Shown here piece after piece: positions 5,604 to 62,889 of a stretch of 64,000 nucleotides of DNA; within the stretch, counting starts at the first letter, position 1; every line of letters begins with the position of its first letter. This DNA comes from Reclinomonas americana ATCC 50394 (lineage: Eukaryota). The stretch is taken from positions 62,001 to 126,000 of the forward strand of contig PS015489.1 of the NCBI GenBank assembly GCA_048213135.1, in the 5' to 3' direction. The position numbers and the translations under genes are program-made. The notes beneath the pieces were generated by a model. It did not search any database, was not told where the DNA came from, and was given only the letters and a program-made list of their open reading frames with translations.

Positions 5604-8600
5604 TCAAAAAGCCGACGAGAGGCCTGCATCGTCGGGGTTGTACGACACCAAACACAGCTCCACACTGAATCCACAGCCGATGAGTTCGTCGATCCACGCG
5701 CGTTGCTGGTCCGACAGCTTGTCCATGCCGCCCTTGACCTCGACCAGCTTGCAGGTTCCTGTGTTGCAACCGTGTGTGTGAGACACACGTCGTTTCAAGG
5801 GAGATGAAGAGTGCTGGAGGAAAAAATACTGCGTCTCGCAACTTCGTTCCACGTGCCACAGGAAGAGATCCGGCACACCGCTCTGCCACTGGCGGTAGTC
5901 GCTGCTGAAGAGGGCGCACATACCCGACAGCTGCTCACCGCTCATGCACTGCACCACCTGCAGCAGCATGGACTCGGAGAAACGATCCCATTGAATGCCA
6001 CGAACCGCACACCCTGCAGGAGAGAGAAAAGTCAGGACGAGTGTGATTGTGCAACCTGCGTGCAGACATCATACCCTTGTGCTTGAACGCCTCACGAAGC
6101 AGCCGCTCCGTATTCTCCACCTCCCGGATCTCTGCCAAACGCGCGAGAATTGCATCGCGGCGCACCAGCATGAAACCCTCCGTTGTCAAATCCAGAGGCG
6201 CGTCTGCGCGTACATGGAGTGAGCTCCATTCTCTCGCAACAAAGCGCACTCACACACTCACTCACTCACCCTGGAAGGGCGTTTGGAACACATATGGCAC
6301 CGAATCATCAAACAAAATATCCAAAAACAGCAGGCCAAACAGCGTGCAAAAGAGACTGCCTTCGCAGTGCACGCCCTTCCACCCATCGGTTCGTCCGTAA
6401 AACTGCAGAGCCAATTCCTGTAGAGCCAGGTGAGTACGAGTCGCGATCCAGAAATCGAGGAGCAGCGCCACACCTCCACGCTGCACAGCTGGTCGTCGTA
6501 GCCAAAGAATCGCTGCCGCGAACCGCGAGCAATCAAGTCGTGTGGACGACCGGCAATGCGCGTCTCTGCCGCCGCTCGCAGCACCTTTAGTTCCACAGGC
6601 GGCGATCCCCATCGCAGCGGAGGCTTCCACAATCGCGCCAAACGTCTGCACACAGGGCGATGCTGTGAGACTGCGTTACGCAGGCACTCGCACCACAGGG
6701 AGCAAAACCCACCGCTCCACCGACACTCGATCACCGGCCTTGACGTGCGGATCGGCCAGTGCCTGCTCGCAAGCCACCACCGCATTCTCCTGCACAGCCA
6801 GTCAGTACACCGTTCATCCATCCCCCAATTCCTCGACACTCACCTTGCTCTTGCAGTGCTCCCAGTTGAGCGCCAGCCGGTTCCACCAGTGGCCTCGTCG
6901 ACTCGGGCAGTACTGCGTGTCCAGCAAGCACTGCAAGTAGAGAATGGCCTGCCGATAGTCCCTCATGTGTTCACACGCCGACACGCCCACTGTCACCGAG
7001 CAGGCGTGCACCCAGCCCGGCGAGAATCGCATCAGGAACGACTGCCGCAACAAAGTGAGTCGAGTGCGCAGAGCGGGGTGTGCTTCTTCGGTTGCCCGAC
7101 CCACCTGTCGTGCCTTCGGCACCTCACGAAACCGGATTCGATCGGCCGCCGCCGCATGGCACATGAGCTCGCACGCCTCCTGCACCAGCGCCATTGTGTG
7201 CTCGTAGCGTTTCGGCGACTGCTCGCCCTCATCCATGGGAACAACAACGGCGGCGGCGGAGGCGGCGGAGGCGGCCGAAGCTGACGTACACGGAGGCTCC
7301 GCCGACTGCGACGCCAGCAGGTGCTCCACCTCCTCATCGTCGACATACTCGGCGTCTTCGTCGGCCTCGGCCTCGGGCGCCACCACATAATCGCGGCATG
7401 CTTCACGGAATGCCGCACTGGCCACACGCCGGCCGAGCGCCACCGCCGCCTCGAAATCGTCCAGTCGCTGCCGCGACGGAAACACCATGACACGACCGAG
7501 ATCCACTTCTCTCCCTTCTTGCTGTCGCGCCGACCACACGCGGTACGGGAAGTACGTCAGAACACCGGCCGAAACGAGAGCCAACTGCGCTGACGAGCGT
7601 GTCGAGTTGAGCAGGAACAGGCGATCGACGCGATCCAGCAAGTCGCACAGTGGCTTGGCGATACGATAGCACTGCGTGGAGGAGGGTGACGTGAGGATCG
7701 CGGGTAGGAAGGCACAAGAGACAAAGGCACGAACCGGTCCAATCACTTGCATCAGAGCCTGGGTGATGGCGTCGCCCTGCGTGGCACTCTCGCGCACGAG
7801 GCAGGCCAACAGACTCTTCTTGGTCATCGACGTCCGTTCCATGCGCATGCGAGCCAGAAGCCCCACTTGCGCCGCAACCTCCTCCAGTTCCGCCTGCGAG
7901 TGGATGTGAGACAACAAGACGCCACGATACCAATAAATGCAAGTGCGCCCCCACACCTTGCTCGCTGGTCTCAACAGCTCAGTCCACGGATGATCGTCGA
8001 GGGAGAGCTCCTCCAGCAAGTGCACATTGCACAGCTGCTGAGCACAGCCAGGCACATCACGAATGACCGAGTATCGCACCTCCAGCTGCTGCACCGGGTG
8101 CCAGCGCAAGCGCTTTCGATTGGCAATCCGAACAAACAGGCGCAATGCATGACCCTCTTGTCGACTGTCAACGAGAGAGAGAGAGAGAGAGAGAGAAGAA
8201 TGGTCACAACAGCGAACAGCGACATGCGTGTGTGGATGATGGACAGCTGTGCGCACGCACCGCAGCAACTCCAACACGCGGATTTCATCCTCCAGCAGCA
8301 ACTCTTTGTACCGATCGCACACCGCATTCATCGCCAGCAAGAAGTCGTCCACGTAGCGCGCCACCGATTCTGCTGACGTGCATGAGTGGCCATCAACAAC
8401 GCACTCAATCACTGGGCTCCAGCGAGACATACCAGCAGCTGGTGGAGGAGGCGGTGGAGGCGGTGGTGGTGGTGGAGGAGGAGGCGTGGCTGGACGCGCC
8501 TGCGGTGACAGAAAGTGCAGGATCGAGCGTGGAGTCGACGATGGCGAGGGCGTGCTGCTTCCACTCGACAGGCGACGACGCGCAGGCGCAGGTGGTGTGA

Positions 8601-9042
8601 CAGCAACAGTGGCTGGCGATGGAGGTCGCGCCTTGCCTTTCCATTTGGCAAACACAGATGTTGATGACGAGGAAGAGGAGGAAGAGGAAGAGGAGGAGGA
8701 GGAGTTGACATGGCGTCGCTTGAAGGGGAATGGTGAGGAGTCCTGTGTGCGAGTATGTGAGGAGTGAATGAAGAGAACATGAGAGGTGTGGCCTTCCTCC
8801 CACTCACAGTTGTCTTGCGCTCTGATCCACCCTCTCCATCGTCTTCATCGTCTGCAGGCAGTGGTCTCTTGGCTGCGCACACAAGAGTGTCAGTAAGAGC
8901 GCAAGAGTGAGAGAAAGATTTTATCAAACCGCGTCTCACCTTGTGCGCGTGTCACTGCCGAGGCTGATGAGGAGTAGGCAGAGACGAGATCCTCACATCC
9001 AACGACCTCACACAGCGATGAGAAGCCAGTGAGGAACGCCAT
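5604..9042 (-). CDS. FAN1: Fanconi-associated nuclease 1 (VRR-NUC), multi-exon
   Basis: Motifs RRGHWWNRLALNWEH, GWKGVHCEGSLFCTLFGLLFLDILF..VPYVFQTPFQ, APLDL, SGVPDLFLW and LVEVKGGMDKLSDQQRAWIDEL (PD-(D/E)xK). Start inferred through two short 5' introns. Confidence 0.92.
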
Positions 9043-9135: not shown

Positions 9136-12100
9136 CTAGTAGAAGTTGGCCATGGCCAGCAACACCAGAGAGGTCCAGCCGGTGAAGGGCTTGACGCCCT
9201 TGCCACGGCCGGTTTCGGGGACGTAGCTCTCCCACAGGTAGCCGGTCTCCTCGAACTCCTTGACGACGCAGGTGATGACGCGGTCGCGGACTTGCTTGAA
9301 GAGCGCCTGTGCCTTTTCCTGTACTGGCGAACCGTCTGTGGAGAGGGAGCAGGCGCGCAGAATTGTGAGTATGTTTTCGTCACTGACACGGAAAGCGAGG
9401 ACCGGCAACGCACTCTTCATGTAGGTGTTGTGCAGCGCGGAGAGGAGAAGGTAGTTGAAGTTCATGAACACGGCTCCGCGCCAGTAGTTCTCTCCCTTGC
9501 CGTAGAACGAATCGTCGGTGTGCAGCGAGCGGATGCCACAGCTGCCGGGGGGAGAAAGCGAACACAATGAGCTTCTCCCTCTCACTCCTCTCTTTGTCAC
9601 ACACGCACGCACCGTGACATCAGCGACTCGGCCGTCTCCAACAGCTTCGGCACCTGCGGTGCGTCGACCGGCAACAGCTCAAGCAGCAGCGGGAACAGAG
9701 TAATGTATCCAATGTGTGGCGAGTAGCCAAACACGCGGCTCTCCGGCTCCGTCACGCGACCCATGTAGTCGGCAAAGAGGCCGGTCTTCGGATCCAAGTG
9801 CAACTCCTCCAGCCGGCTGTACAGCTTCTCGTAGATCTTCTTGTACTTGAACGCGTTGTCGAGTCCGAGGCGGTCCGAGATGCGGTACAGTGCGCGACTT
9901 GCCGCCATCAGCCAGCAGTACAGATCGAGGTGACGCTCGTGGTCGTTGGCCTCGGGTGAGCGAGGATAGTCGTCCAGACCTACAGCACTCAACATTAAGC
10001 AACTGCAGACGCACTCAAATGCCATGAAAGAGACTCACGCACCCGACGTGAACGTGTGATTGGTGGAGCGACCGGCCCACATGAAACCGAGACCGTCTTC
10101 GGCCTCGTGCTTCTGGCGCAGGAACTCAAAATGATGCACCATGCGCGGCCACACATTCAGCAGGAATGTGCGGTGCGTCGTGGACTTGGGGCAGTTCGGC
10201 TTGGCCAGGTGCGACGACGACGCGGAGACTTTCGAGGCGGCGCCCTTGGCGTCGACGGCCACACTGCAGCGAAGAAGGGAAACTCAGTCTTTTTCTTTGA
10301 CAAATGGACCAGAGGGAAGAGGGGCGGACGCAACGCTTCCTTGCCGCCCAACGTGCACCCCTCCAGTGCCATGCGCTCCACCGCCAGGAAGAGCGTCGGC
10401 GGATTGGCGTGGCCGGGGAACTGGCGCAGGAACTCTGGTGGCACCTTGGCGCGCGCCTCCGGCCCCAGAATCTGCTCACGCGGAATCCATCCGTCTTCCT
10501 GAATCGTGCTGAACCAGGACGCGATCATGATTTTGCTGCGCAGCGGGTGTGAGTGATCACCCACACAAGCTCGTTTCCTTTCTTTCCTTTTGCCCCGGTG
10601 CCACTCACCTGAGGTCGGGGTTCCATCGCTGAATGACAAGCTGGTGGAAACCCTCGTCCCAGAAGAATCCACGCGGGAAGTACGACCGGTTCGGCACGGC
10701 AGTCATGAGTGTGCGCGCAGCCAGCGGCATGGCACCACGCGGGTGCACCAGAGTCGAGCCCCTGTTGGAGGGGCCAGCAAGATCAGCTACTGCACACCAC
10801 CAACGCAGCAATAACAGGGAATATGGCACCGCACGCACCAAAAGTAGCCGACCGACCCGATGAGGTTGGACATGGCGAACTTGGCCGACTCGGTCCACTC
10901 GCTCGACGCCACTTCCGCCCCGAACTTGGCCACAAACTTCTTGTCGAAGCCACTCTCGGCCTCCGACAGCAGCTTGTTCAGCGACTTGCCGCGGAGATCC
11001 TCCGAGGCCGCAAACACGTCGTCGGGATCGACAAACTCGTGATTCACCATGACAACATCCATCTGCGCCGCGCGGTGAGAGTGACGACAACGGAGCGACG
11101 GAATAGTGTGGAAAGGGAAGAACGCACCACAAACGGCAGCTCCAGCACCTGCTGCACCAGAGCCACATTGGCCATGCGACCGCTCTTGTTGTCGAGCGTC
11201 TGGAAGCTGACGCAATCTGGTGAATGGGATGAGTGACAGACGAGGAGAAGACTGGCTGGGTGCTGCAAGCGACAAACCCTTCTGGCGCTTGCGGCAGGCC
11301 TTCTTACGCAGGTGGCGTGTCAGAATGTCCTTGATGTCGCGCGCAGCACCACCCGGCTGCACATCATCGGTGGTGGCCGTGAATGTTTGCTCCGATTTTT
11401 GCGCTGCACGAATCGTCAGAGACCGGCAATCACACACGGGTTGGATAGGAGAAGCAACGAAACAGTTGAGCACAAGAATGGAGAAATCGCCGACACCATC
11501 GGCCGACGCCTCAATATGCACACCACCAGCGGCTTTCTGCAACACACGTCGTCAGTGAGGAGAGAGATCGAACACGGCAAAAGCGGACACGACCAATGCA
11601 CAAACCTTCTTCTTCACACTCAACGTGTGCTCTCCCTCCACAATCGTATAGTACCACAGCAGCAGCTTATCGCCCTTCTTGCCGCCCTCATACGGCGCTC
11701 CTCGCACACGCATGACCCAATCACCGCCTCGCGACGCCACTCCGCCCGGCACATCCTTCTGCCCTCCGTCCAATCGCCGATACATTTGCGTCGACAACGA
11801 CACGCCGTTCTGGTGGTCTTGAATCACCTGCGTGCCATACGACATGCCATCGTGCTTGTTCCACCCAAAGCGATCCATATCATCGCGTTCCTCGCACGTG
11901 TTGCGAATCGCTGGAAAATGCCTTCAGCAAACAACAACAGATGTGTGAGAGGCAAAGCGTCGCACCTCCATCCTCCAGTGCCGACCACATGATACCCGTG
12001 ACCGCTGCAACAACAACAGACGAAAGAGTCAGGCATTTCCTCGTGTTGACACGCACGCGCGCGCACGTTGCCCTCGCTTTCACCTGCGTTCTTTTGTGTG

Positions 12101-20911: not shown

Positions 20912-21031
20912 CGTGTGACGAGTAGCGACGTGCGCGAGTAGGAGGAAGGACGAGTAGACGAAGAAGAACGTAACGAACGAACGAAGAGTACGACGACGTA
21001 ACGAACGAANNNNNNNNNNNNNNNNNNNNGA

Positions 21032-24097: not shown

Positions 24098-25630
24098 TCA
24101 TGTTTCGAGTGGCTCGGCTGGTGGTGGTTGTGGTGCCGACTGCTCGATCGCGAGCAACAGCGCGGCCACGCCCTCATCGTCGAGAGTGTCGAGATCGATG
24201 CAAAACTGCTTCAGTGCGGGGTTGTAGTAGTCCGACAAGACCTACACATTCGCAAAAAGGCGTGAGTACCAGCAGCAATGACCCCTGGCAAAATAAAACC
24301 CCGCCACGCAACATCCAGTGTCTGTCGAATTGCGTCGAGATGCTCCGGACTCTGCGGACCGCGCGACACCTCGGCGTGCAACGAGTGCAAAACACACGTC
24401 GTAAACTGCGGGTTCTGCTCAAACATGGCCCTGATCCTCTCCCGCGCCACCGCATGCAGCCCTCCCATGTCCTGCACCTTGACATAAAATCGTTCCTATT
24501 CCAGAGGGAGGATCAGCCATGGGGGAGGGAGAGGGAGAGGGAGACGGAGAGGGACGATGCACTGCACAGTACCAGATAGCGGAACACTTTGCACGCAAAG
24601 CCAATGGCTCGCTTAAACGCCGACCACAGCGCTCCCAACACCGCCGTGGCATCATCCTGATTCGCCTCCACCTCCATCAGCATGCGCTGCACGTACTCCT
24701 CCAGCCACTCCACGTACTTGCCAAAGAACAGCTTCTCGTACTCCTGATCGATATCCGACTTGACGCACAGGTTGAAGATCCGACTGCGGTCCACAAACAA
24801 CAACAGTCAGAAGACGAAGGGACATCCAAAGCGAGACTGTGGAGGTAGAAGGACGAGGAGGAGGAAGAGAAAGTGAGAGGAGAAGGAGACGGAGAAGAAG
24901 AAGGAGGAGAAGGAGAAGAAGGAGAAGAAGAAGAGGAAGAAGAACAAGAAGGAGGAGAAGGAGGAGAGGGAGAAGAAGGAGAAGAAGAAGAACACCAACA
25001 AGAAGAAGAACATGGAGGAGGAGGAGGAGAAGAAGACCAAGAACAAGAAGAAGAAGAAGAGGAAGAAGAACAAGAAGAAGAAGAAGAAGAAGAACAGGAG
25101 GAGTAGATGAAGAAGAGTGTGTTATATGGTGATTTGACCCGACGAGGAGACAACAATAGTCACAACAAAGATGAATGACGTTCTCAGCTGCGACAGACTA
25201 CCCTTGCACCCATACTTGCAAGAGGTGTATATGTGTGTGCGTGTGTGTGTTCTGTCTCGTGCGTGCGTCACCATCTGTGTGTGTGTGTGCGTGATTGTGT
25301 TCCATACACAGTGACAAGTGATTGACTGATTCCACCACCACCAAATGACTCAACGTATAGACATCACACAGCTCAGTGCCGTGCAAGTTGCGCAGATTGT
25401 GATCCTGCTCAAACTTGCGCAGCGAATGCGCCACGCGGACCCACACATGCTGAACTTGCTCCTCGGGTCCCACCAACCGCAGCTCAGGCTCCACTGTCTT
25501 CTGTCGCATCTCATCCTCCGCGCACCTCTATACTCATATACACATGAGAGTGAGTGAGTGTGTGTGCGAGAAGGAGACTGGACACAATGAGTGTGCGTGC
25601 CTTGCGTTCAGATTTCTTGCGCCTGTCCAT
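24098..25630 (-). CDS. Short protein with only a cullin N-terminal repeat (CACUL1-like)
   Basis: Spliced ELCDVYT|RIFNLCVKSDIDQEYEKLFFGKYVEWLEEYV...LWSAFKRAIGFACKVFRYL|..FYVK resembles cullin repeat 1. The gene stops after about 200 aa. The first intron appears to be GC-AG. Confidence 0.65.
24845..25116. repeat. Purine-rich (GAA/GGA)n low-complexity tract inside an intron
   Basis: About 270 nt that is almost pure G/A on the + strand, within the inferred intron ~24786-25354 of the cullin-like gene. Confidence 0.9.
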
Positions 25631-37541: not shown

Positions 37542-37738
37542 CTCCTCTTCCCCCGCTCACGCAAACACACACACAAAACAGAGACACAAAACGCAATCAC
37601 AGAAGGAAGGAGGCAAGAAGGCGAGGGGAATGCAGTCGAGAGCAGACGATGCGCACTTGAAGAGAGAGAGAGATAAGAGCTGCGTGGACATTCGACCGGC
37701 TCGCGCATCCGCAACTGTCCATTGTCACTTGTCTCGCG

Positions 37739-39996
37739 ATGGGGTGGACGGCCACTCAGATCGTTGGCTCCTTTGTGGCTGCCTCGATGGCGTGGGGCAT
37801 TGGTGTGCTGCTCCTTCTCATCTCCTCACTTTTCATATGTACATTGACTGATGCATTGTCACAGGTGCAAGCGATTGTGCCAATTCATTCGGGTGCGAGA
37901 CACAGTGCATTCCCGTCTCTCTCTCTGTGTGTCTCATTGCGTGTCTGCAGCACGAGTGTGGGCTCTGGCGCCTTGTCGCTGCGAGTGGCACTGATGCTGG
38001 CGACCGTGTTCGAATTTGGCGGATCTCTTTTGATGGGTGGCTCCGTGTCTTCGTCGCTGGCGTCGGTGGTGCACGTGGACATTGATCCGGCGGATCCGGC
38101 TGCTGCCGACAAGTACTTTGTGTTCCAGTTGGTGATGCTTTGCACGCTGTTTGGTGCCTCGGCGTGGGTGATTGTGGCGACGTATTTCAAGTGGCCCGTG
38201 TCGACCACGCACTCGGTGGTCGGGGCGCTGGTGGGCACTGGAATCGTGGCGTACGGGTTTGATAGCATCAACTACACGGTGGTCGTCACTGCGGCGATTT
38301 CGTGGGTCACGAGTCCGGTGCTGGGCGGACTCGTGTCGTTCTTCATCAACCTGTTGGTGGAAAAACTGGTGCTCCGGCACCCACGGCCGCTGTCGCGTGT
38401 TCGCTGGGTGTTTCCGCCCATTGTCGGCTGCTCTGTGGGCGGTCTCTTTGCGTTTCTCGTCACCAAGGGTCCCAAGTTGAGCGCACCGTCGTTGTCGTCT
38501 TGTGCGCGATGATCGTTGTTGACCGCGAGTACTGCAGGTTGCTGTTGATTCCTCTCGACGCGTGGATCATTTGGCTCACCGCCCTCGGCATCTTTGTGGT
38601 GGTGACCACGGCCTCGTGCTTTGTGTTGCCGGCGATGCAGGTGGCCATGTCGGCCAAGTCGAAACCATCGCTGCTCTCCACGCAGTTGCGTTCGAATTAA
38701 TATGCACACCCCTTCACACAGTTCCTCACTTACCTCTGCAGAGGCCATCACGACGAGGACGATGCGGCATCGCCTACCACGGAGGCCGTTGGCATCGAGA
38801 TGCACGACATACGCCGGACGATGGCTTCGGCGGGAGACGACTCGGCTGATGTCGAGTCTGCGAGCGCTCACAAGGAGGAGCAACGAGTGGTGGCCGAGCT
38901 CGGCATCGCTGCCTCTTCTGCGTCACTCGGTACCGCCACTGCCGACCACGGTGACGACGACGATGACGACGACGGCATCAGTGACACTCGAGCGGGCAAG
39001 AGAAAGGCTGCAGCAGCTGAGGAGAAGCGTTCACTCAAGGACAACGAAGAAGAAGCAGACGGTGACGGCGAGAGCAATGGCAGCTCTTCCTCTGCCATGC
39101 GCCGAGTGACCACCGACAACGCATCCGGAGAGGCGTCAATGCACCCGTCTTCGGGAACGAGTCCACCCGCAGCAGCAGCAGCGGGCGAGGAGGAACACAT
39201 GGATGAGGGAAGGCGGCGCGAGATTGAAATCGTGCAGCGTCCGTTCCGCTACCTGATGGTGATGAGTGCCAGTTTGCTGGCCTTTGCGCACGGAGCCAAC
39301 GATGTGGCGGTGAGTGTGGACACACGGTCGCACTCTCAGGGCTGTGTTGTGTCGCTCATCTCCGAGGTTGATTGTAGAATGCGATTGGACCGTACGTGGC
39401 CATGTTGCAGACCGCCAGCTACACGAGTCCCGGCAGCAAGTCAGTGGGCGTGCCGTTCTGGGTGACTTGTGGTGGCGGCGCATTCATCTCCTTAGGTCTC
39501 CTCACGTGGGGCTATCGGTGAGCGTCGTCGGCGACAAAGGAAATGAGGAGTCGAGGATTTCTCACCTCTCACGTCACGCGCAGAGTAATGGGCACCGTGG
39601 GCAAGAAGATCACCAAACTGACATTCGTGCGCGGCTACGCTATGGAATTCTCCACCGCGCTGAGCGTCCTGGTGGCCACTGTTATTGGTGCCCCAGTGTC
39701 GACAACGCACGTGCTGGTCGGCGCAGTTGTCGGCGGTCAGTGACAGCTTTTCTATCACGCCTGCATCACCACTGCCGCTAAACATGCACGATACAGGTGG
39801 TCTGGTCGAAGGCACCAAGAACGTCAATCTGCGGTGAGCAGCCTCCTTTCCGACGTCTGCATTCTCCTCCTCACTCACAATGCATCGCAGAGTTGTCCGC
39901 AGCATTGTCATGTCGTGGGTGATCACCATCCCCGCCGCCGCCGCCTGCTCCATCCTTCTCTTCCTCATCATCCGTCTCTTTGTCTCGCTAACATAA
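37739..39996 (+). CDS. PiT/PHO4 (SLC20) phosphate transporter
   Basis: [79 protein letters not shown]. Confidence 0.94.
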
Positions 39997-42145: not shown

Positions 42146-43950
42146 TTATCGGCTAAGATCGGCCAGTGTGCTCGATTCGGCGTGCTCGCGAGGAATGCGG
42201 CACAGCAGGGCGCCGAGGGCACTGATGTAGCCCTCGTGCGTCAGGAATCGCGCCTGTAAGGCACGAGATGGGTGAGTAACGACCGCAGTCTCCAAGAAGC
42301 AAGTTCTGCCTCACCTGCATCTGGCCCGACGACCAGTAGTTGAGAGCAAACGAGATTTTCGACTGCGTGATTGGGTGGTCGCGAATGTACGAGCCCGTAA
42401 AGTATACCCGCTGCAGATTGAAGCGCATGGCGTTGAGGTAGGCGATTTGTGCCGTGTTGTTGGCAAACATCAGCAGTAATGAGCGGATAATGTCGGACTT
42501 TCTGCACTCGACACACGGAGGAGTGAGTGACAAAACACTCATCCAGCCGTCCAGCAAAGCAAGCACAACGAACCTGAAGTTCTCGCGCACAGAATGACCA
42601 GGCTCGACCTTGGCCGCGATTACGCGACCGACACTGGACGCAATGGTGCTGCCGGGCAAGCCGATCTTGTCATAGTCACCACCGTAAATGTCTTCCACCT
42701 TCATGTCGACATTTTCGTTGTTGCCTGTGCACAGACACACCCGCAGCGTGAGCATCACCATAGGAAGATTGGCAAGTGCCGCAAGAGGTGCACAATAATG
42801 TACCTTCGTGCGCCAGCTCGAGCATCTCGTCAAAGTTGGAAATGTCGGTAATGAGTCGGCACAAGCCGAAAAATGTGCCTGTACACACTCTCCTGTCAGT
42901 CACCCGCACACACACCCCCGCCCATCGGCGCTCTCTGCACACGCACCTCCGCCTACGCTGGAACCCGACACACGTCTCGACTCGTCGTTGCCGTCCACCT
43001 TCAGAATACTGATGCCGGAGCCGACATTGACCACCAGGTACGGGAAGATGCCCTGCAGCCATCCATCCAAAAAAAAAGGTGAGAGGGCCGCAGCTGCTAA
43101 AAGGGAAAGGAAAGGGAAAAACCGTCGCACCGACTGATCCACCGGCAAGTAGTGCTTCTCCTTGGTGGCAGGGTCGACGTAGAACGACTCGTTGGGAGTG
43201 TTTTGCAACGCAAAATTCAGTCCGCGGACCAAACTCTCCATCTCGTCGACCTTTTGCACCGTCACCCCAAACCGCGACCGCAGCAGAGCCTCGTACTTGT
43301 GCGCACCGCCGCCGGTGACGCTCACCACCATCGGCAGCGGTGGGTGCTCGGAGATGAGGCCTTGCTCTGAGCGGGACGAAGGGTTGAGTAAAGGGGGTCA
43401 AACAAGAGAGAAGTGCACCCACTCACCGAGCAAGAACTGCAGCGCCTCCTCGACATTGGCGCTGGGGAAGCGATGAAAGTGGAACTTGCCACGCTTGCCA
43501 CGGACTGGCGACGACACCACCAGTGAGCAATGCGACACACAGAATCATCGCAGGCAGAGCACGCAACAGATGCGACGCAGGGCGCGATCCACGTTTGGCG
43601 GATGAAACGCGCCTTGCGGGAGCGACAGTGGAGACTCGCCATCTGCGCTGATCGAGTGGCGGCGATGCACACCGCTGCTGCCACTGCTGCTACTGCGCGA
43701 CACGGGATGAGCGCACAGAGAGAGCAAGCATGCAAAGATGCACAAAGTCTTACCTCGCGCCATCCTCATCTTCCTCCTCATCGCCACCATGCCCACTTGC
43801 TCCATTCGCTGCAGCACTGCTGCCACTGCCGGACCCCGATGCAGCGGGTACCTCATCGGAGTCAGGCAGCAACCAGGCGATCTTGATCAGTGAGCCTCCC
43901 ATGTCCATTGCCCAGCAGGGGTCACTGTGGAGAGAGGGAGTGAGAGAGAT

Positions 43951-50346: not shown

Positions 50347-52439
50347 ATGTTGAGAGCGCGGTCATTGTTCAGACCGCTTTCCACTGCTTCTGCAGCAGTG
50401 TATCAGACACTGAACCCGGCAACAGGTCGCGTGGTGGCCTCGTTTGAGCTGGACTCGCGACAGTGTGTGAATGAGAAGGTGTGAGAGATTGGAGAAGAGA
50501 CAAGTCTGGCCTCCCTCATTCACACGTGCGCAGTTGCATGCACTGCATGATGCATACGGCAACTACCGCGCCTTGTCTCTGGCCCAACGAGGCTCGTTCT
50601 TGTCACATGTGGCATCGGTGTTGTTGCGTGTGCATTGCCTCTCTCTCTCTCTCTGTCTGTCGACTTCTCTCTCTCATGTGCTTGCCATCAGAGAGGAGCG
50701 CACCAAGCATCTGGCTGACCTGGCGACACTGGAGATGGGCAAGCCGCTGTGGCAGGCCGAGGCCGAGGTGAAGAAGTGTGTGGCCACTCTGCGGTGAGTC
50801 TCTTCTCCTCCTCCATCCTCCTTCTCCTCCTCCTCCTCCTTCTCAAGCCCGCGTGCTGCATCAGCTACTTTGCCGTCAATGGTGCAGAGATGTTGCAGTC
50901 GCGGCCACTCAGCTCCGATGCCTCGCAGGCGTATGTCGTGTACCAGGTGCACCGAGACAACGAGAGCGCCTGTTGCTTCATTGATTGCTGACACTCTGTG
51001 CTTGTGCAGCCGCTCGGTGTTCTCTTTGGCATCTTCCCGTGGAACTTTCCCTACTGGCAAGTGTTCCGCTTCGCCGCGCCTGCGCTGATGGCCGGCAATG
51101 TGTTTATCATGAAGGTCGGCGTGCATCGCGTCGAGTTGGAGCACACGCACGTCACGCTGCTGATCTCTTCTTCTCCGTGTGCCTCGTGCAGCATGCACCC
51201 AATGTGCCGCAGAGCGCCGTGGCGGCCGCCGATGTGTTCAACGATGCTGCGCGGCGGGCCGGTCTTCCGTGCAATGTGGTGTGCGCCAATGTCTTTGTCG
51301 ACAACGATGTGGCGGCCGACATTATTCGTGATCCGCTGGTGGCGGCCGTGTCGTTCACGGGAAGCACGCGTGGTGGGGCCGCTGTGGCCAGTGTCGCCGG
51401 TTCGGCCATCAAGAAGTCGGTGTTGGAGCTGGTTTGTTGAAGCAAATGCGGGAGGGTGCGAAAACAGCGGCTGATCCCTCCGATGCAGGGCGGCTCCGAT
51501 CCGTTTATCGTGCTGAAGGACGCCGACCTGGATCTGGCCGTCAGTCAAGCTGTACTCGCGCGCACCGACAACAAGTTGTGATCCTCTCTTTCTCTCTTTT
51601 GATCCCTCACTCGACTCACAAATGCGCCACTCCAGTGGACAACGATGCACGGCCGCCAAGCGCTTCTTCATCGAGGCCCCGGTGTACGAGGAGTTCCGCT
51701 CGCGAATGGTGGCCGCCATGTCGGATGTGGTGGTGGGCGATCCACGCAACCCCGACACCAAGCTGGGTCCGCTCGCCCGGCAAGATCTGCTGGAGCAACT
51801 CGAGCGGCAAGTGGACAGCAGCGTACAGCAGGTGCGTCGGCGTCAGTCGGGCATTGCCACTCTCTCGTTGGGGTCTCACTCGCCAATCGCCAGGGTGCCA
51901 AGGTCGAGATCGGCGGGCGACGCGTCGGCTCCGAGGGCTTCTACTACGCACCGACTGTGCTCTCCAACGTCACACCCGACATGGCTGTCTTCCAGGAGGA
52001 GACGTTCGGCCCGGCAGCACCGCTGATCAAGGTCGCCAACGTGGAGGAAGCGATTGAGTTGGCCAACAGGACCGAGTATGGGTTGGGTGGTGCGCATCGC
52101 TCCCTTGCGCGCATGTGTGCACACGTCTCCAGTGTCATCTCACCGCGTCACTCCTTGGCAGGTGCCGTGTTCACTCGCGACGTCGCCCTTGGCCAGCAGG
52201 TGGCTCATGCCCTCGAAGCCGGCATGGCCTTTGTGAATGGCGCCGTGAGTCCACCACTCTCCACTCCTGCTCTACTTCCACACGACGGTGGATTTTTCTC
52301 ACGTGTGATGTCCATGGCGCAGGTCAAGACCGAAGCCGGCATGCCGTGCGGTGGCATCAAGCGGAGTGGCTATGGCCGCGAATGCGGCTTTGCCTCGGTG
52401 CTCGAGTTCTCCAACGCCAAGACCGTGTGGATCAAGTGA
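50347..52439 (+). CDS. Aldehyde dehydrogenase, succinate-semialdehyde dehydrogenase GabD1/Sad-like, with probable mitochondrial presequence
   Basis: [17 protein letters not shown] presequence, [87 protein letters not shown]. Confidence 0.92.
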
Positions 52440-54383: not shown

Positions 54384-57300
54384 CTAGTGCGGGAAGAGCA
54401 CGAATTCGACGGCAGGCGGAGGCGAGCGGATGAGATCGGTGGCGTCGGCGGCGATCAGGCGCACGGCGAGGAACGACATTTGCTCCAGAGCCACCACAGT
54501 GCTGTTGGCGGCCCACGTGCACACCATGCGTTTTACGAAGCCGCTGCCGTCGCGTGGGAAGGCGTTGGGCGAGCGTGAAGATGTGGGCACCACCGGAACG
54601 CGGACCACGTGCATCCATGTGGGGTACGCCACACGGGCGCTCTCAAATACGCGCGGCCAAGGGATCTGTGCGGGAACGGGAATATGAGTGGCTGTCTCGC
54701 CAAGAGTCGAAGAAGCATCGGCAACGTGCAACTCACCGATCGTTCGTAGCCATAGTACGGAACGTAGATGCGGATGGCGCGCCAGTCAAAGTCGAGCACG
54801 CACGCAGTGCAGCATCCGTCGAGCACAGAGGTGGCTCCGCGAGCGGCCAGTAGCTGCGAAGAAACCACGTGAGACCACCGCTTCGTTCGCAGAGAGAGAG
54901 AGGTGAGTGCCACGCAACTGCTGCCTGCTGCCTCAAGTTCTCCTGCACAAACAGCTCGGTGACTTGCTGCTGCACGTCACGTCTGAGCGACGTCAAGCGG
55001 TCGTGATGGAACATCTGCGAGCGTCTTCAGTTGCAGCTTTCACACATTTGGTATTCTATTTCAACGAACGTACCGCCCGGCGCAGTGTGGTGCGCGTCGG
55101 CATCGACAGCTTCTGCCCGATGCTCGTGCGCAGCATCTTGTGAACACCGCGATGCACCAGCAGATCCGAGTACCTCCGGATCGGACTGGTGAATTGCGTG
55201 TAGGCGTCGACGTTGAGCGAGAAGTGCATCAGGCCGGCCTGCGCGCGACCACACGTACTGTCAAGGAGGAGTAGAATATGCACAGCAAACACAACGACAA
55301 CGCACTATTGCTTCGGTATTGGTGGTATCTGACACATCAAAAACGGTGTATCCGCCGGCACGCATGTACCGTGAAAACAGGTGAACCAGTGCCTGTGCGT
55401 GCACCATTCTCGAGTCAGTCTCATGTACCGTCTCTCTATTTCGCGAGACGATAACAGTACCTCCTTCCTGACGTCCGAGTCGTTCAGTGCATCGACCAAG
55501 CGCATGCAGCGGCGCAAGTAGTGCAAATCGTCCTCTCCACGCTCCTCTTGCACTCGGAAAATGGCTTCGACGCAGCGCGCAAACGTCTGTCGGTGTGGTG
55601 ACGGATCGCTGTTGCGTGCTGGTTGGTGGCGGAAAATGGCACCAAACTCCTGCAACTCCTGCCACTCCTCGGCCGTGCGTTGCTCCTCCGCAGGGCACGG
55701 TATCAATTCGCACACCGGTCCGAGTGTCGCCGGCACCGTCACTTCCGCTGCGCTCACAAACAATCACGCGAGGTGAGCTCACATGTGCGACGGTAAACTG
55801 CATCTTCGAATCACACCTTTGCCGCCACGTGAGGCACTCAGGCTCAAGAAGCGACGGAGATGAGCGGCGCAGTGCGTGTTGGCCAGATTCATGAGCTCCT
55901 CAATCATCTGTGCGGCCAAGTTCGGGCGCTCGAATGAAAGCTCCACAGAGCCCACTGTGTGCGTTGGCAGGGTGTGAGGCGACAGGGGGGAAATGAGGCG
56001 ACACCAAACGACGACACTTGCAAGCACGCTCACCACCCGGCAACGCTGCGTCCTTGCGGTATGTGCCACCAAACACCTTCTCCGGACGATCGAGCGACAG
56101 CGCACCGCCAACCAGGCGCTGGCGGCGCAGGCTGGCGGTGATTCCGTACAGTGAGCGCACAGCGTTGAAGACATCCTCCACGCGCTCCGGCGGCACCGAA
56201 CGCAAAGCGGCGGCCGACGGTGGGAGAGTGCCGTCGAGAATCGACTGCGCCGTCGGGTAGTCGAGAGCGACCCACGACGACACAACACTGGTGCACAGAC
56301 GCGACGAGATGACGATAAAGTCGCCCGAGCCCTGTGCACACCACAAAAAGAGTGAGTGCGCACGAAAGATGTCACACGCATCTACTGAAGCAAACTCACC
56401 GGATCGTGGCGCACGCGCACGAGAACCGACAAGCACAAGCGCTCCGTGTTCGGGTTCAGGCTGCAAACGCCGGCCGAGATGCGCTCCGGCAGCATGGAGT
56501 CCACGGCACCGAATGGCGTGTACATGGAAATCGACGCCGCCTTGGCCGCCAAGTCGAGCTCCGATCCCTCGGGCACATAGGCCGCCACATCGGAAATGTG
56601 CACACCCAACTCAAACTCGCCACCTGCGACTCGCAAATGTCAGCTGCAACTGCACGTACGAGTGCGGCAGTGAAGACGACAGACAAGCACGCACCACCGA
56701 CATGGCGCAAGTGCACTGCATCGTCCATGACGTTGGTGTCGGGTCGGTCGATGGTGAAGACGCACTGTGCGCGCAGATCAACACGCTCCTCCAACACTGC
56801 ACAGAGCATCTCGTGAACACATGCATCATCTGTCAATCCCACTTCCACCGACATGCAGCAGCGTACCCTTTGGATCGACACGCGCCTCGCTGCGCATGAG
56901 TCCCGGATATCGGTCGTCGACTGGCGCCGCTGTGGCGAATTCGGGGAGGCGGTAGAACAGTTCGGCGGCCTCGTCACGCACGCACTGGAATTGCAAAAAG
57001 TAGGCCACCTCCACGGTCTTCAGGTTGGAGGCGTCGCCCAGGACATCGGCCACACGTCGCACCGACGGGAAGCCTCGCTTCTCCGTCCAGTCGCCCAACT
57101 CCACCGAGAGGATCTTGCCCATCAATCCTTGCGGACCCGGCAGTTTGTGCGCATGCGCCGCACCCGTCATCTGCTTAATGTGCACGGCGCAGCGCGGCAG
57201 ACGGCTGTTCAGCGGCTGAAGCAACGTGAAGAATTCGCCGAGATTCGTCGAGTCGTCGAGGATGCCGACGGCGCGGACCACGCGCGGTCGGTCGGCGTAC

Positions 57301-60195
57301 ACGATCTCGCCAGTCACCACTGTTGCACAAACACCAGCAAATGATAACCAAGCACGAAACAGGGGGGAAATGCACAGGCATATCGCGGCACCTTCAGACA
57401 GTGTCCGGTCGCGCAGCGGGATGGGTGACGCGCTAACCTCGCCATCAGAAGTCGGCTGTGGCGCACAGTGAGCACGTTGCTCCTCAAACAGCACACATTG
57501 TTATCAATCCTCACACGTACCTCGTACAGGCTGACCACCACGTGGTCGCCATCGAGAGCACGATTGCGCAGCGTGGCTGACAGGATGCGCACGACACCAC
57601 CATTGTCCAAGCCGACTTCGGCGTACGAGTCGCTCTTGCAGTAGAGGGTGCCCTCCATCAGCTTTCCCGATCGGCAGCCGGCGTCGAGTGACCGCGGCGA
57701 CAAGTACGGAGTGTAGTTGTTGCTCGGCAGTCCTGGCGGACCGACTGCCTTGAGCGACGAGCCGCGTGGACGACTGCCACCGGCGTCAGCTGTGTGGCGA
57801 GGTGAGTGACAAGCACCCGACAGCAGGAGACATGAAGAAGTATGGACGAACCAGCAGCCGAAGCAGAGGGGAAGAGAGGACCACTGGTCACCTCGTCGAC
57901 TGAGCCACCGTGCGCCTGGTTGATGAGGATGGTATGTGTGCGAGCGCACGCGTCGACCAGCGCCTTGAGCAGCGGCGGCTTGTTGAAGGCCAGCAGATTG
58001 CAGTCGAATTGGACCGGATCCACTGCGCGAGTAGGGAAAGAGGAAGATGAGTCGGGGGAAGTGATGCAGTGCGCTCTCGCCAGAATGCATGCACGTACCG
58101 ACTACGAATTCACGCGCGTCATCTCCGACACGGTGAGACAAATGCACCGAGAGCGTCAGGTGATGGAGCGAGCACACGGCATCGGTTTGCCAATCAAAGT
58201 CACGCAGGTTGCCGAACAGCGAGAAAAAGTCGGCCACCACTGCTTCGGTCAGCGAGTCCTCCTGTTGACGGAAAAGCAGCAACATGAATACTCATAGAGC
58301 AAGCGCGCACACCACGCATTGCACTATCTCTCTCACCTTCTTGGTGGGCACCGACAGAATTTCCGCGGCCAGATCCGACATGAGGAACGCGGTCTCGTCG
58401 TGCGACTCGGGATGGCGCACATCCTCCAGGCCGTGCGTCACCCACCCGGCCTGGAAGGCCTGCGCGCCGACCTTGACCATGAAGCCGCCAATCAGATCGG
58501 TCAGTGCGGGGAGGGCCAGGGCCGTCGAGTATGTCAGAGCTGGAGTGATCTGTGTTGACGTGCAGTCAGTCAGCATTGAGGGGGAGAAAGAGAGTTGGAG
58601 GAAGAGAAGAAACACGCAACATGTGGGTACGGCGCCAGCTGCTGGATGCGTGCATCTTGGAAACGCGCAAACACCACTTCGGCTAGCCGATCCAGCGCCT
58701 CAATACCGTCGGCACGCCGATTGCGCGACGTGCGCTCCAACACAAAGTACACCACCATGTGGGCGAGTGCCTCGAGCGAGATGGAGTCGTCATTCTCGAA
58801 CCCCAACAGATCGGCACGGCACCACGCGGTGAGTGACGGCAGCTTTGCTTGCAACGCCGCCACCACCTCTGCCGGATCCTGCAAGTACGGCACCGCGTAG
58901 CCACACGTGCGTGCCCAGTGAATGACCGCATCCAGCAACTCCACAATCAGCTGTCGCTCTCGCGGTGTGTACGTCTCCAGTGCCTCATTCAGCGCCGTCA
59001 TCTGCGACTCTAGTGTCAGTGGTTGCGGGGAGGGACACGACTGCCGAGAGACGCAACTCCAGCCATGCGCCAAAAGATGTTGATCGAGACGTTGAATCGC
59101 TGACTGGTGCACATGCAGTACAGACCCGACTTGGCGCGATGCTTCATGCGCACGTCGGTGTAGTTGCCGGCTGAAGCACACACACACGAAATGGAAACAG
59201 AGTGTCAGAGGTAGTTCGAGAGGCGGGAAACAAAGGAGCAGAGAAGAGACAGCGCATAGAGAAAAAACGACAGACCTCTAGAGAAGGTGGCATGCTTCTC
59301 ATTGAAGCAGAAATGTAACACTGAGTGCGGAGAGAGAGAGAGAGANNNNNNNNNNNNNNNNNNNNNNNNNNNNNNNNNNNNNNNNNNNNNNNNNNNNNNN
59401 NNNNNNNNNNNNNNNNNNNNNNNNNNNNNNNNNNNNNNNNNNNNNNNNNNNNNNNNNNNNNNNNNNNNNNNNNNNNNNNNNNNNNNNNNNNNNNNNNNNN
59501 NNNNNNNNNNNNNNNNNNNNNNNNNNNNNNNNNNNNNNNNNNNNNNNNNNNNNNNNNNNNNNNNNNNNNNNNNNNNNNNNNNNNNNNNNNNNNNNNNNNN
59601 NNNNNNNNNNNNNNNNNNNNNNNNNNNNNNNNNNNNNNNNNNNNNNNNNNNNNNNNNNNNNNNNNNNNNNNNNNNNNNNNNNNNNNNNNNNNNNNNNNNN
59701 NNNNNNNNNNNNNNNNNNNNNNNNNNNNNNNNNNNNNNNNNNNNNNNNNNNNNNNNNNNNNNNNNNNNNNNNNNNNNNNNNNNNNNNNNNNNNNNNNNNN
59801 NNNNNNNNNNNNNNNNNNNNNNNNNNNNNNNNNNNNNNNNNNNNNNNNNNNNNNNNNNNNNNNNNNNNNNNNNNNNNNNNNNNNNNNNNNNNNNNNNNNN
59901 NNNNNNNNNNNNNNNNNNNNNNNNNNNNNNNNNNNNNNNNNNNNNNNNNNNNNNNNNNNNNNNNNNNNNNNNNNNNNNNNNNNNNNNNNNNNNNNNNNNN
60001 NNNNNNNNNNNNNNNNNNNNNNNNNNNNNNNNNNNNNNNNNNNNNNNNNNNNNNNNNNNNNNNNNNNNNNNNNNNNNNNNNNNNNNNNNNNNNNNNNNNN
60101 NNNNNNNNNNNNNNNNNNNNNNNNNNNNNNNNNNNNNNNNNNNNNNNNNNNNNNNNNNNNNNNNNNNNNNNNNNNNNNNNNNNNNNNNNNNNNNN

Positions 60196-60277
<82 letters not shown>

Positions 60278-61126
60278 GGGAGGGGGAGGGAGAGAGCCCA
60301 AGAAGATCCCCAACTCTGGAGATGCGAGCGTGCTCCTCAATGAAGCAGACATGCATCACCAACTGCTCATACAGAGACCAAGAAGAGATCTCTGAACTCT
60401 CAAACTCAGGGGAGACAAGAGCAATCAGTGAAGCAGACATGGTGCTCACAGAGAGACTGTGAGACCAAGAAGAGATCTCTCTCAACCCAGCTTTGGCAAA
60501 GATGAGCACGCTCCTCAGTGAAGCTGCCATGACGCACCAACCTCATTCACTGCTCTTCCCAACTGCTCGTGGAGGAGAGATCACTACCCTCACTTCCCAA
60601 TGCTCAGTGAGCGCCACCCATCTCCCATCTCCCATCTCCCATCTCCCTTCTCACCCTGCTTGAGTCGCCGAATGACATCCTTGATGGCGGCGACGCGTGC
60701 ATCGGGATCGGCCTCGCACGTCGGCACCGCCGGCAATACCACATGCGACACCGACGCATCGACAAACGCCGGCACCGACTCGCGCTCAATCAACGACACT
60801 TGCAGAATGTCGCGCGTCGAGTGCAATGGCAGAAACGGCGACGCAGACAAGAGCACAGGATGACACTCAATGCCTACACAATGCGCGCCAAAAATTGATC
60901 AGCAATCAGAGACAAGTCAAACTGTCGCTGTTACTTCAGTGCGCGCGCATGTATATGTGTATGCAGAGAGAGCAGAGAGAGAGCGAGCGTGTGTGTGTGT
61001 GTGAGACAAGTGCGTGCGTTTGTGCGCGCGATGGTCGTGACACATGACCACGCAACTCTTGTGTGGCACGGCCAGTGCGACTTCCAGCTCGCGCAGACAT
61101 GCCGCGCGTTGTGCGTCCAAGTCCAT
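54384..61126 (-). CDS. DIS3L2-like RNase II/RNB exoribonuclease with N-terminal degenerate TUTase/poly(A)-polymerase-like (NTase + PAP-associated) region
   Basis: RNB half: YTPYLS...[94 protein letters not shown]-terminal half: [76 protein letters not shown]. The checked junctions (exon 1 through the cold-shock region) join in frame via GT-AG introns. Confidence 0.85.
59277..60545. repeat. Degenerate ~80-90 bp repeat (core CTCA[A/G/T]TGAAGCAGACATG, AGACCAAGAAGAGATCTCT) plus (GA)n tracts flanking an ~850-N gap
   Basis: Three copies at about 60298, 60373 and 60461, and one partial copy at about 59277-59320 on the other side of the gap. Confidence 0.75.
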
Positions 61127-61399: not shown

Positions 61400-62688
61400 A
61401 CACCACTCTGTCTCAGAAGAAAGCTGTGATCGCATGCGCACAGGACACGCGATTGCACGGACCCCCACCCATAAATGCGTCTTTTGAGCGCAACTTGCTT
61501 TGCACTTGCTCTGTGCCTGGCCGTGGTGCTGTCGCTCAGCGCAGCGCCCACTCATGCAGTGCCACCCACCATGCCTCTGTACTATCAGATGGAGTGGGTG
61601 CTGTGGCATGTTGCGTTTGTGTTTCTCCGAGGTTGACTGCACACACTCCAACTCACTCGCGCGCACATCAGGTGGACGAAGACAACATCCCGCCTCCATA
61701 TGGACTCACTCCGCCTCCGAATGCGCATGTGGAACAAGGCCGCGGTCGCACGTTTTACGACTGGACGCAGCGCGCAATGATCGAGATGTGTGTGCACAAG
61801 AAGAAGCTTGTGTATTGTGTGGATCGTCAGCTGCTCATCTTGTTTTTTGGTTGCAGTTACGACGACTTTTGTGTCAACATCTTCCCCGATCCCACTGACC
61901 ATCCGGGCCCATGCAAGTTCCTCAATGTCAACGAGACCTCGTTTCGCACCACTCTGCGTCGACTCATCACTCGCAGCCGGAGGTCTCACTCGTTTGACTG
62001 AACGCAGGTACTTGATCAACAGTGATCCGGTGCACTACCCCAACGATCCCGTGTGCTGCGTGTTTTCGGTGCGTTTTTTGCCGCGATGCTTGTGATGTCG
62101 TGTGTCGTCTCACTGCGGCAACAGCACAACTTCCATCCTCCGGCGCCGACCTTCTTGATCGACAACAAGGATGTGATCCCGAATGGAGTTGCGTGACTCT
62201 CGCTTCCGTCTCTTGCTCTCTGTCTGCGACCTCTCATCTGTGCTGTGCAGATGTCGTACATTGGCTCGGCTCCGGTTCGTGGCACTCATGCGAAGCGAGA
62301 AATGCGTGCGCTCACTCACGTGTGTGTTGCAGGTCACCTGGTACGAGGTGCCGAAGGGTGATGGCGCGCCATTCAACTATGGGTGCGGAATATCTCCCGT
62401 CGTCACTCATCCTCTGCAGCACTCTTGCTCACCTTCTTTGTCCTCGCTCAGCTTCTACGACGAGAAGGCGCCGGTGCCGGCCGCCTTTAGCTTCCCTGCC
62501 GTCACGGTTCGTGGGCGCGTGCTGTGCTCACCGTGTCACGCCTTCGTGAGTTCTCACCTGTGCAATTGCGCACGCAGGGTTGGGACTGGCAGCGCTTCTA
62601 CAACTTCCGCGCCGCCAAGCCTGATCCGAGCGTCTTCCACCTGGATCCGCGTTGCCTCACTGCCGACTACTGCAAGATCCACCTGTAA
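61400..62688 (+). CDS. Ependymin-related-like (putative secreted/lysosomal) protein, multi-exon; start uncertain
   Basis: GRGRTFYDWTQRAMIE, YDDFCVNIF, PVCCVF..FHPPAPTF, VTWY, C-terminal WQRFYNFRAAKPDPSVFHLDPRC resembling the ependymin-like PDPSVFxxPxxC ending. Confidence 0.55.
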
Positions 62689-62889
62689 TGCGACGCCGCG
62701 TTCACCAACAACAGCAGCAACAACACAACACAACAAATTTCAATTTTTTCAACGTAGGCACAAAAAACATCTCAACATTTCGAGAAAAAACACAGTGAAC
62801 AACAACAACACAGAGAAGCACACGCAGCTAATCACGGTGTTCTCTTTTTTAAGAGTACAAATACAGCAGTCTTGCAACTGCAAAACGGA

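Follow-up and report, generated by a model that had tools for sequence, protein, structure and literature searches.

A putative fusion of a degenerate Cid1/TUT-type nucleotidyltransferase to a DIS3L2-like exonuclease in Reclinomonas americana

Introduction

We analysed a 64,000-nucleotide (nt) stretch of the genome of Reclinomonas americana ATCC 50394 (GenBank assembly GCA_048213135.1, contig PS015489.1, positions 62,001 to 126,000; hereafter the window) and found on its minus strand a long, intron-rich gene whose predicted product appears to join, in one protein, a pseudo-nucleotidyltransferase that is a relic of the Cid1/TUT type and an exonuclease of the DIS3L2 type. We put the probability of this reading at about 0.55. 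According to it, residues 1 to about 444 would represent a strongly diverged relic: a nucleotidyltransferase (NTase) palm now devoid of its catalytic signature, then a helical part in the middle, then a poly(A) polymerase (PAP)-associated domain. A Gly/Ser/Pro-rich linker of about 20 residues would then lead into a complete DIS3L2-type 3'-5' exoribonuclease comprising cold-shock domain 1 (CSD1), cold-shock domain 2 (CSD2), an RNB domain and an S1-like tail.

Uridylation-triggered decay is seen as a relay, in which the tail is written by a terminal uridylyltransferase (TUTase) and read by DIS3L2, which degrades the RNA; in animals and yeast, the RNA-tailing enzyme and DIS3L2 are separate proteins. 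The gene described here was first pointed out in an earlier note, made from the letters of the window, as an apparent single-polypeptide fusion of a (pseudo)TUTase and a DIS3L2-like exonuclease.

Results

Gene structure and coding signal

Enumerating, coordinate by coordinate, the GT-AG pairs that link adjacent open frames without a stop yielded a minus-strand model with 20 exons and 19 introns, running from an ATG at 61126 to a stop codon at 54386-54384 and containing 3882 nt of coding sequence (1293 codons plus the stop) with no internal stop (Table 1). The limits proposed in the earlier note, 54384-61126, were matched exactly by the assembled model, and all the peptide stretches quoted there were located on the minus strand. 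The locus is GC-rich and intron-dense. Seventeen of the 19 introns are 56-97 nt in length; only intron 1, with 183 nt, and intron 2, with 1484 nt, are longer. The acceptor is CAG in 18 introns and TAG in the remaining one, and the donor sites are of GTTGCG, GTACGT or GTGAG-like type.

A codon model was trained on exons 8-20 alone, which are those confirmed by homology. Under this model all seven N-terminal exons scored +0.25 to +0.50 per codon in the modelled frame and were negative in both other frames, while the pooled introns scored -0.08 to -0.30. The GC content at codon positions 1/2/3 is 0.66/0.43/0.75 in exons 1-7 and 0.65/0.47/0.77 in exons 8-20. The coding signal of the N-terminal exons exceeds chance.

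The C-terminal exonuclease

Judged by its matches, the C-terminal part of about 830 residues is an exonuclease of the RNB family, and among proteins of solved structure DIS3L2 is closest to it. Pfam detected the RNB family (PF00773; cut-off 29.3 bits) at 74.7 bits in the piece with exon 12 and at 50.1 bits in the piece with exon 17, and OB_Dis3 (PF17849), corresponding to CSD2, at 29.2 bits (cut-off 22.8). When exon 12 was compared with the PDB, the matches were mouse DIS3L2 (E = 1.9e-11), a bacterial RNase R (3.7e-11) and human DIS3L2 (1.8e-10), with Rrp44/DIS3 at about 1e-6 (1.3e-6) and DIS3L1 at about 1e-5 (1.3e-5) in lower ranks; the list is formally topped by a designed repeat protein without a passing stretch. 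DIS3L2 was again the best PDB match, weakly, of exons 8 and 11, making it the best natural solved relative of exons 8, 11 and 12. CSD1 was found in exon 8, also weakly, the top three PDB matches in the HMMER search all being DIS3L2 (E = 0.11-0.2, human residues 39-115). No S1 family was matched by Pfam in the C-terminal region; MAFFT places residues 1162-1227 against the S1 region of RNase R.

It is the absence of a PIN domain and CR3 motif that distinguishes DIS3L2 from DIS3 and DIS3L. An enzyme of the PIN-bearing DIS3/DIS3L type was considered and dropped, as Pfam found no PIN family in any N-terminal piece. Given that DIS3L2 ranks first among the natural PDB matches and that a PIN domain is lacking, 'DIS3L2-like' is a reasonable name for this exonuclease, which appears to be very diverged.

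Searching longer proteins with exon 12 gave 24 matches, all with an RNB domain and none with an NTase or PAP domain; the eight that are named are all ribonuclease R, and two of these carry bacterial names (of metagenome-assembled genomes). A scan of a prokaryote-only contig collection with the same exon found 47 loci. Neither search yielded a eukaryotic relative. Exon 10 gave no relatives among 709 candidates from longer proteins, among 262 pattern matches or in the PDB. Compared with eight bacterial RNase R proteins, the RNB domain has an insertion of about 40-60 residues (approximately residues 960-1040, in exons 14-15, 55461-55954, minus strand), which on this alignment is lineage-specific.

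The N-terminal module

When the exact exons 1-7 were searched against Pfam at E <= 10, PAP_assoc (PF03828, 'Cid1 family poly A polymerase') in exon 6 was the only family found (E = 0.042, 14.6 bits); residues 9-38 of the exon align to positions 6-33 of the 60-position profile. Both the family and the exon had been named beforehand, in the earlier note, and for one pre-named model in a library of 24736 an E-value of 0.042 is equivalent to a P of about 2e-6. The last third of the profile found no match; it would fall where intron 6 cuts the domain, and on into exon 7, which opens with the Asp-Pro...Asn element pointed out in the same note. As controls, we searched 42 off-frame and antisense open reading frames (ORFs) of the locus; there was no PAP_assoc match and nothing at all at E <= 0.1, and two of the 42 gave three unrelated matches at E = 0.15-1.3. 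A PF03828 search for a Cid1-family comparison set gave no match in one genome and 14 control genomes.

In non-canonical tailing enzymes, as an excerpt of PMC7988573 describes them, the NTase domain occurs together with a PAP-associated domain, which canonical poly(A) polymerase lacks. Taking this together with the match at the pre-named place, descent from that family is the best reading of the N-terminal module, and we regard its origin from the Cid1/TUT-type family as likely. The PAP_assoc relationship itself is weakly shown by the profile match.

The Pol-beta-type palm of NTases carries three catalytic carboxylates and an hG[GS] turn in the pattern hG[GS]x7-15[DE]h[DE]h. A regular-expression search for this signature gave no match in residues 1-466, where no G[GS] precedes residue 282, with an 850-base run of N in intron 2 lying between the exons read. 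Exon 2 has neither a G[GS] nor a DxD in a strand context, and exon 3 has Asn instead of Asp in the motif quoted for this place in the earlier note. The catalytic site of non-canonical NTases consists of three aspartates, according to the part of PMC7988573 that deals with it. As the signature is absent and a palm was not detected, the module is probably catalytically dead. The 'pseudo' in the earlier description fits this picture. Of the TUTase reading as a whole, the PAP-associated part was found in the predicted exon, below threshold, and the NTase palm went undetected; NTP_transf_2, one of the Pfam families that the earlier note proposed to look for, did not appear in any single N-terminal exon.

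Several observations weigh against the reading of the gene as a Cid1/TUT-type relic joined to a DIS3L2-type exonuclease. The PAP_assoc score lies under the Pfam cut-off (14.6 versus 22.6 bits), and when exon 6 was searched inside its 325-residue stop-to-stop frame the match was gone and nothing else appeared at E <= 1. Exons 2-5 and 7 matched no Pfam family, neither NTP_transf_2 nor its kin, and the stop-to-stop pieces of the N-terminal part gave no relevant family at E <= 1. Comparison of exons 2, 4, 6 and 7 with the PDB by phmmer returned nothing or only unrelated proteins at E > 0.6. In the ESM Atlas, exon 4 had no usable match and exon 6 matched only RNA recognition motif clusters, at 0.75-0.77, which is under the noise level of the tool. 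For exon 4 (127 residues) there was no match at E <= 0.001 among 1,835,955,588 representative proteins, none of 597 pattern matches in JGI metagenome contigs was confirmed, and none of 4731 word-sharing candidates among longer proteins is a homologue. AlphaFold models of single exons had low confidence and were not counted as evidence: exon 4 alone was all-helical with six helices (pLDDT, the predicted local distance difference test score, 47.9) and exon 2 alone had three strands and a helix (pLDDT 50.5), shapes that would agree with helical fingers and a beta-rich palm. Foldseek on the low-confidence exon 4 model retrieved unrelated helical proteins only, at E >= 1.5. By sequence, the N-terminal 444 residues are an orphan. 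In addition, the join of exons 1-2 to the remaining exons crosses the unseen bases of the N run in intron 2, and one active-site Asp of the RNB domain is replaced by Val, so that the nuclease too may be impaired.

This last replacement lies in RNB motif I (exon 11, 56696-56794, minus strand), which has the series Asp, Val, Asp, Asp instead of four Asp. An excerpt of PMC3293843 gives the active-site residues of Escherichia coli RNase II as Asp201, 207, 209 and 210, with Asp209 the most critical. In a MAFFT alignment with eight bacterial RNase R proteins, and in HMMER comparisons with human DIS3L2 and Rrp44, the Val takes the place of the Asp207 equivalent. The other three Asp, including the equivalent of Asp209, are kept, and in the MAFFT alignment conservation extends to the rest of the RNB motifs. 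From these residues we expect that the nuclease is probably active, and that it could be weakened.

Given these observations, it has to be asked whether the fusion is real and its 444-residue N-terminus is a lineage-specific domain unrelated to NTases, the PAP_assoc match and the motifs being chance likeness. The sole statistical link to NTases is a sub-threshold match over 30 residues, and no palm, PDB relative, homologue or confident fold turned up. Chance would nevertheless have had to strike, at E = 0.042, a pre-named family (1 of 24736) in a pre-named exon, when 42 control ORFs had no such match, and the part of the profile absent from exon 6 coincides with the interruption by intron 6. 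An unrelated N-terminus is in our view unlikely, although it is the best surviving of the alternatives, and we retain the relic of a Cid1/TUT-type enzyme as the preferred reading.

The junction between module and exonuclease

In the region 57870-57775, intron 7 (57851-57790; 62 nt, GTTCGT...ACACAG, phase 1) is the only GT-AG pair (1/1) that bridges both frames free of stops. Its donor and acceptor types and its length class resemble those of the other introns of the gene. The 62-nt joining intron of the earlier note is therefore borne out as the only in-frame, stop-free join there, and the upstream region that had been put at about 450 residues counts 444 up to the junction in our model. That the N-terminal module and the DIS3L2-like CSD1-CSD2-RNB part lie in a single continuous frame, as had been claimed, is supported by frame, codon bias and matches.

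Exon 7 is positive under the codon model in the modelled frame only, which argues that an alternative frame through it is not coding. Retention of intron 7 would extend the upstream frame to a stop at 57658, and over exon 8 this read-through frame has the codon bias of non-coding sequence (off-frame scores -0.38 and -0.52). Beyond the junction, in-frame Met codons begin with residue 488, which lies inside CSD1. Since the conserved start of CSD1 lies in exon 8 with no in-frame ATG before residue 488, exon 8 needs an upstream coding exon. Finally, the flanking intergenic spaces measure about 200-350 nt, and intron 7, with 62 nt and standard splice signals, is too short for a terminator and a promoter.

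These data bear on the possibility of two products, in which the upstream module would be translated from its own mRNA (intron 7 retained, stop at 57658) and the exonuclease from another mRNA, by way of a promoter inside the gene or of an alternative first exon. In the organisms treated in the excerpts of PMC7988573 and PMC6344859, TUTase and DIS3L2 are separate genes, and such an arrangement would agree with that. A separate exonuclease would, however, begin in a CSD1 without an ATG of its own before residue 488, the read-through over exon 8 has the scores of non-coding sequence (-0.38, -0.52), and the 62 nt leave no space for terminator and promoter; we consider two products quite unlikely. 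A tblastn search of the window with the spliced protein revealed no second copy, the only other match having an E-value of 0.096 (6781-6930). We infer that one gene gives rise, through a single transcript, to one protein of 1293 residues, and judged from the sequence the fused mRNA is likely to be the main product.

The gap in intron 2

Intron 2 contains an 850-base N run at 59346-60195, with (GA)n on both borders. On the upper side the repeat occupies 60196-60296 (51.5 copies), and a 7-nt repeat, CCCATCT, stands five times beside exon 2 (60617-60652). The N run looks like an unassembled microsatellite. The phases of exons 2 and 3 match across the intron. A further exon within those stretches of intron 2 that can be read was considered and dropped, as the flanks are without coding signal.

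It is conceivable that the module is an active non-canonical tailing enzyme, and the protein a single-chain tag-and-degrade machine, with catalytic residues that are unorthodox or encoded in an exon hidden in the N gap, which does sit exactly between the two exons expected to form the palm. Exons 2 and 3 nevertheless join in phase and already supply the expected order of elements, the gap has the (GA)n of a microsatellite on both of its sides, and the readable sequence is without an NTase signature. An active tailing enzyme is on these grounds improbable. It is more improbable still that no such protein is made, the gene being a pseudogene in decay or an artefact of scaffolding: one active-site Asp of the RNB domain and the NTase signature are lost, a gap lies within the gene, and relatives were not found in the searches with exons 4 and 10, but a frame of 3882 nt runs over 19 introns with no stop or frameshift and with all splice sites intact, the codon bias is frame-specific in each exon, and the alignment shows the rest of the RNB motifs to be conserved.

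Discussion

The favoured reading of a pseudo-NTase joined to a DIS3L2-type exonuclease leads to a simple model of function. The N-terminal module, as predicted from its sequence, would most likely no longer add nucleotides, tailing activity having been lost. By analogy it may instead serve as a built-in binding platform, either for the 3' end of RNA or for a partner, for instance an active tailing enzyme, and substrates bound in this way would be delivered to that chain's own RNB channel. A broader proposal would be that an isolated eukaryotic lineage joined a TUTase-derived domain to DIS3L2 as a self-contained 3'-end surveillance enzyme, which would either still tail (through an unorthodox site or a gap-hidden exon) or read tailed or unprotected 3' ends and feed them to the nuclease. 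We regard this proposal as speculative and rather doubtful.

One of the closest known arrangements is TRUMP of Drosophila, which, in the excerpts of PMC6344859 and PMC7988573, is described as two polypeptides, the TUTase Tailor and Dis3L2, joined via the DUF1439 domain of Tailor. As in TRUMP, a Cid1-family module would be physically coupled to a DIS3L2-type exonuclease, placing 3'-end recognition or tailing and decay in one particle. Unlike in TRUMP, where Tailor is an active uridylyltransferase, the link here would be covalent, as the spliced frame suggests, and the NTase signature is missing.

A second parallel is offered by human TUT4, whose NTD1, as reported in an excerpt of PMC6488673, lacks two catalytic carboxylates out of three, shows a closed pocket and binds Lin28 and pre-let-7. 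Like NTD1 of the Lin28-interacting module of TUT4/7, the module described here may be a Cid1-type domain that is missing catalytic carboxylates and is kept as a binding platform in an enzyme of uridylation and decay. In TUT4/7, however, the dead domain is joined to an active TUTase and is readily recognised, whereas here it would be joined to a nuclease and is much more diverged, betrayed by a 14.6-bit PAP_assoc match only.

With DIS3L2 from mouse, from human and from fission yeast (PDB entries 4pmw, 8e27/8e29 and 4ro1/9cy7), the predicted protein shares the order CSD1-CSD2-RNB and the lack of a PIN domain. Known DIS3L2 proteins start shortly before CSD1, whereas this one has 444 extra N-terminal residues; it also differs from them in the Val at the position of the second active-site Asp and in the RNB insertion. 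The mitochondrial 3' processome (MPsome) of trypanosomes contains the TUTase RET1, which is active, and the RNase II-like DSS1 as separate subunits. It resembles the present case in that a TUTase, or here a TUTase-derived part, and an exonuclease of the RNB family form one assembly, although the MPsome is mitochondrial and has multiple subunits.

A full-text literature search found no description of a natural TUTase-DIS3L2 fusion, and within the literature searched the statement in the earlier note that such a machine was not recognised as described holds. The uridylation-decay pair as such is known; what would be new is the covalent joining, with a degenerate writer. If the reading is true, the relay would exist in a single-chain version which, even with a dead writer, would constitute 'Rosetta-stone' evidence that both activities act on the same RNA end simultaneously. 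The protein would also be a ready construct for structures of a Cid1-type domain passing a 3' end to the RNB channel, and it would represent the second tailing enzyme turned recognition domain, after the Lin28-interacting module of TUT4/7. If the module is unrelated to NTases, the protein would merely be a homologue of DIS3L2 that carries a long orphan extension.

Genomic context

Table 1. Parts of the putative fusion gene and Pfam-named neighbouring genes in the window (positions are those of the window)
Feature	Position	Strand	Basis or remark
Whole coding region	54384..61126	minus	20-exon model; in-frame codon bias of every exon
Exon 1, residues 1-24; start ATG at 61126, in-frame stop just upstream	61057..61126	minus	Model
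Exon 2, residues 24-97; expected place of NTase palm (strand, turn, strand)	60655..60873	minus	Model
Intron 2, 1484 nt, phase 1	59171..60654	minus	Contains N run
Exon 3, residues 97-134; expected place of strand with third catalytic carboxylate	59058..59170	minus	Model
Exons 4+5, residues 135-332, intron 4 at 58620-58550; helical middle of N-terminal module	58337..59001	minus	Model
Exons 6+7, residues 333-444, intron 6 at 58098-58023; PAP-associated-like, then Gly/Ser/Pro/Ala-rich tail	57852..58261	minus	Pfam
Intron 7, 62 nt, phase 1; join of module and exonuclease	57790..57851	minus	Sole in-frame stop-free pair
Exon 8, residues 444-533; low-complexity linker, then CSD1	57521..57789	minus	PDB matches
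Exons 9+10, residues 534-706; CSD2	56867..57455	minus	OB_Dis3 PF17849
Exons 11-17, residues 706-1129; RNB catalytic domain	55074..56796	minus	RNB PF00773
Exons 18-20, residues 1130-1293; C-terminal region aligning with S1 of bacterial RNase R	54384..55014	minus	Alignment
Tra1/TRRAP central region	1643-4192		Pfam
FAN1 (VRR_NUC + FAN1_TPR)	5607-8844		Pfam
Glycoside hydrolase 63	9139-11923		Pfam
PHO4 phosphate transporter	37661-39462		Pfam
Fumble pantothenate kinase	42156-43397		Pfam
Aldehyde dehydrogenase	50471-52436		Pfam

The neighbouring genes were identified by running Pfam on ORF pieces. The six that could be named in this way (Table 1) are ordinary eukaryotic genes, each with many short introns. 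About 350 nt from the start codon of the putative fusion gene, a divergent gene begins on the plus strand (61475-62690); it has several short introns, its N-terminus contains a hydrophobic, signal-like segment, and Pfam found no family in it. The two genes may share a bidirectional promoter. A second run of N, a scaffold gap of 20 bases, lies at 21010-21029. A 77-codon ORF on the plus strand (24877-25107) matched no Pfam family and has a codon-bias score of 94.9, unusually high for its length; it may encode a highly expressed small protein or be a compositional repeat.

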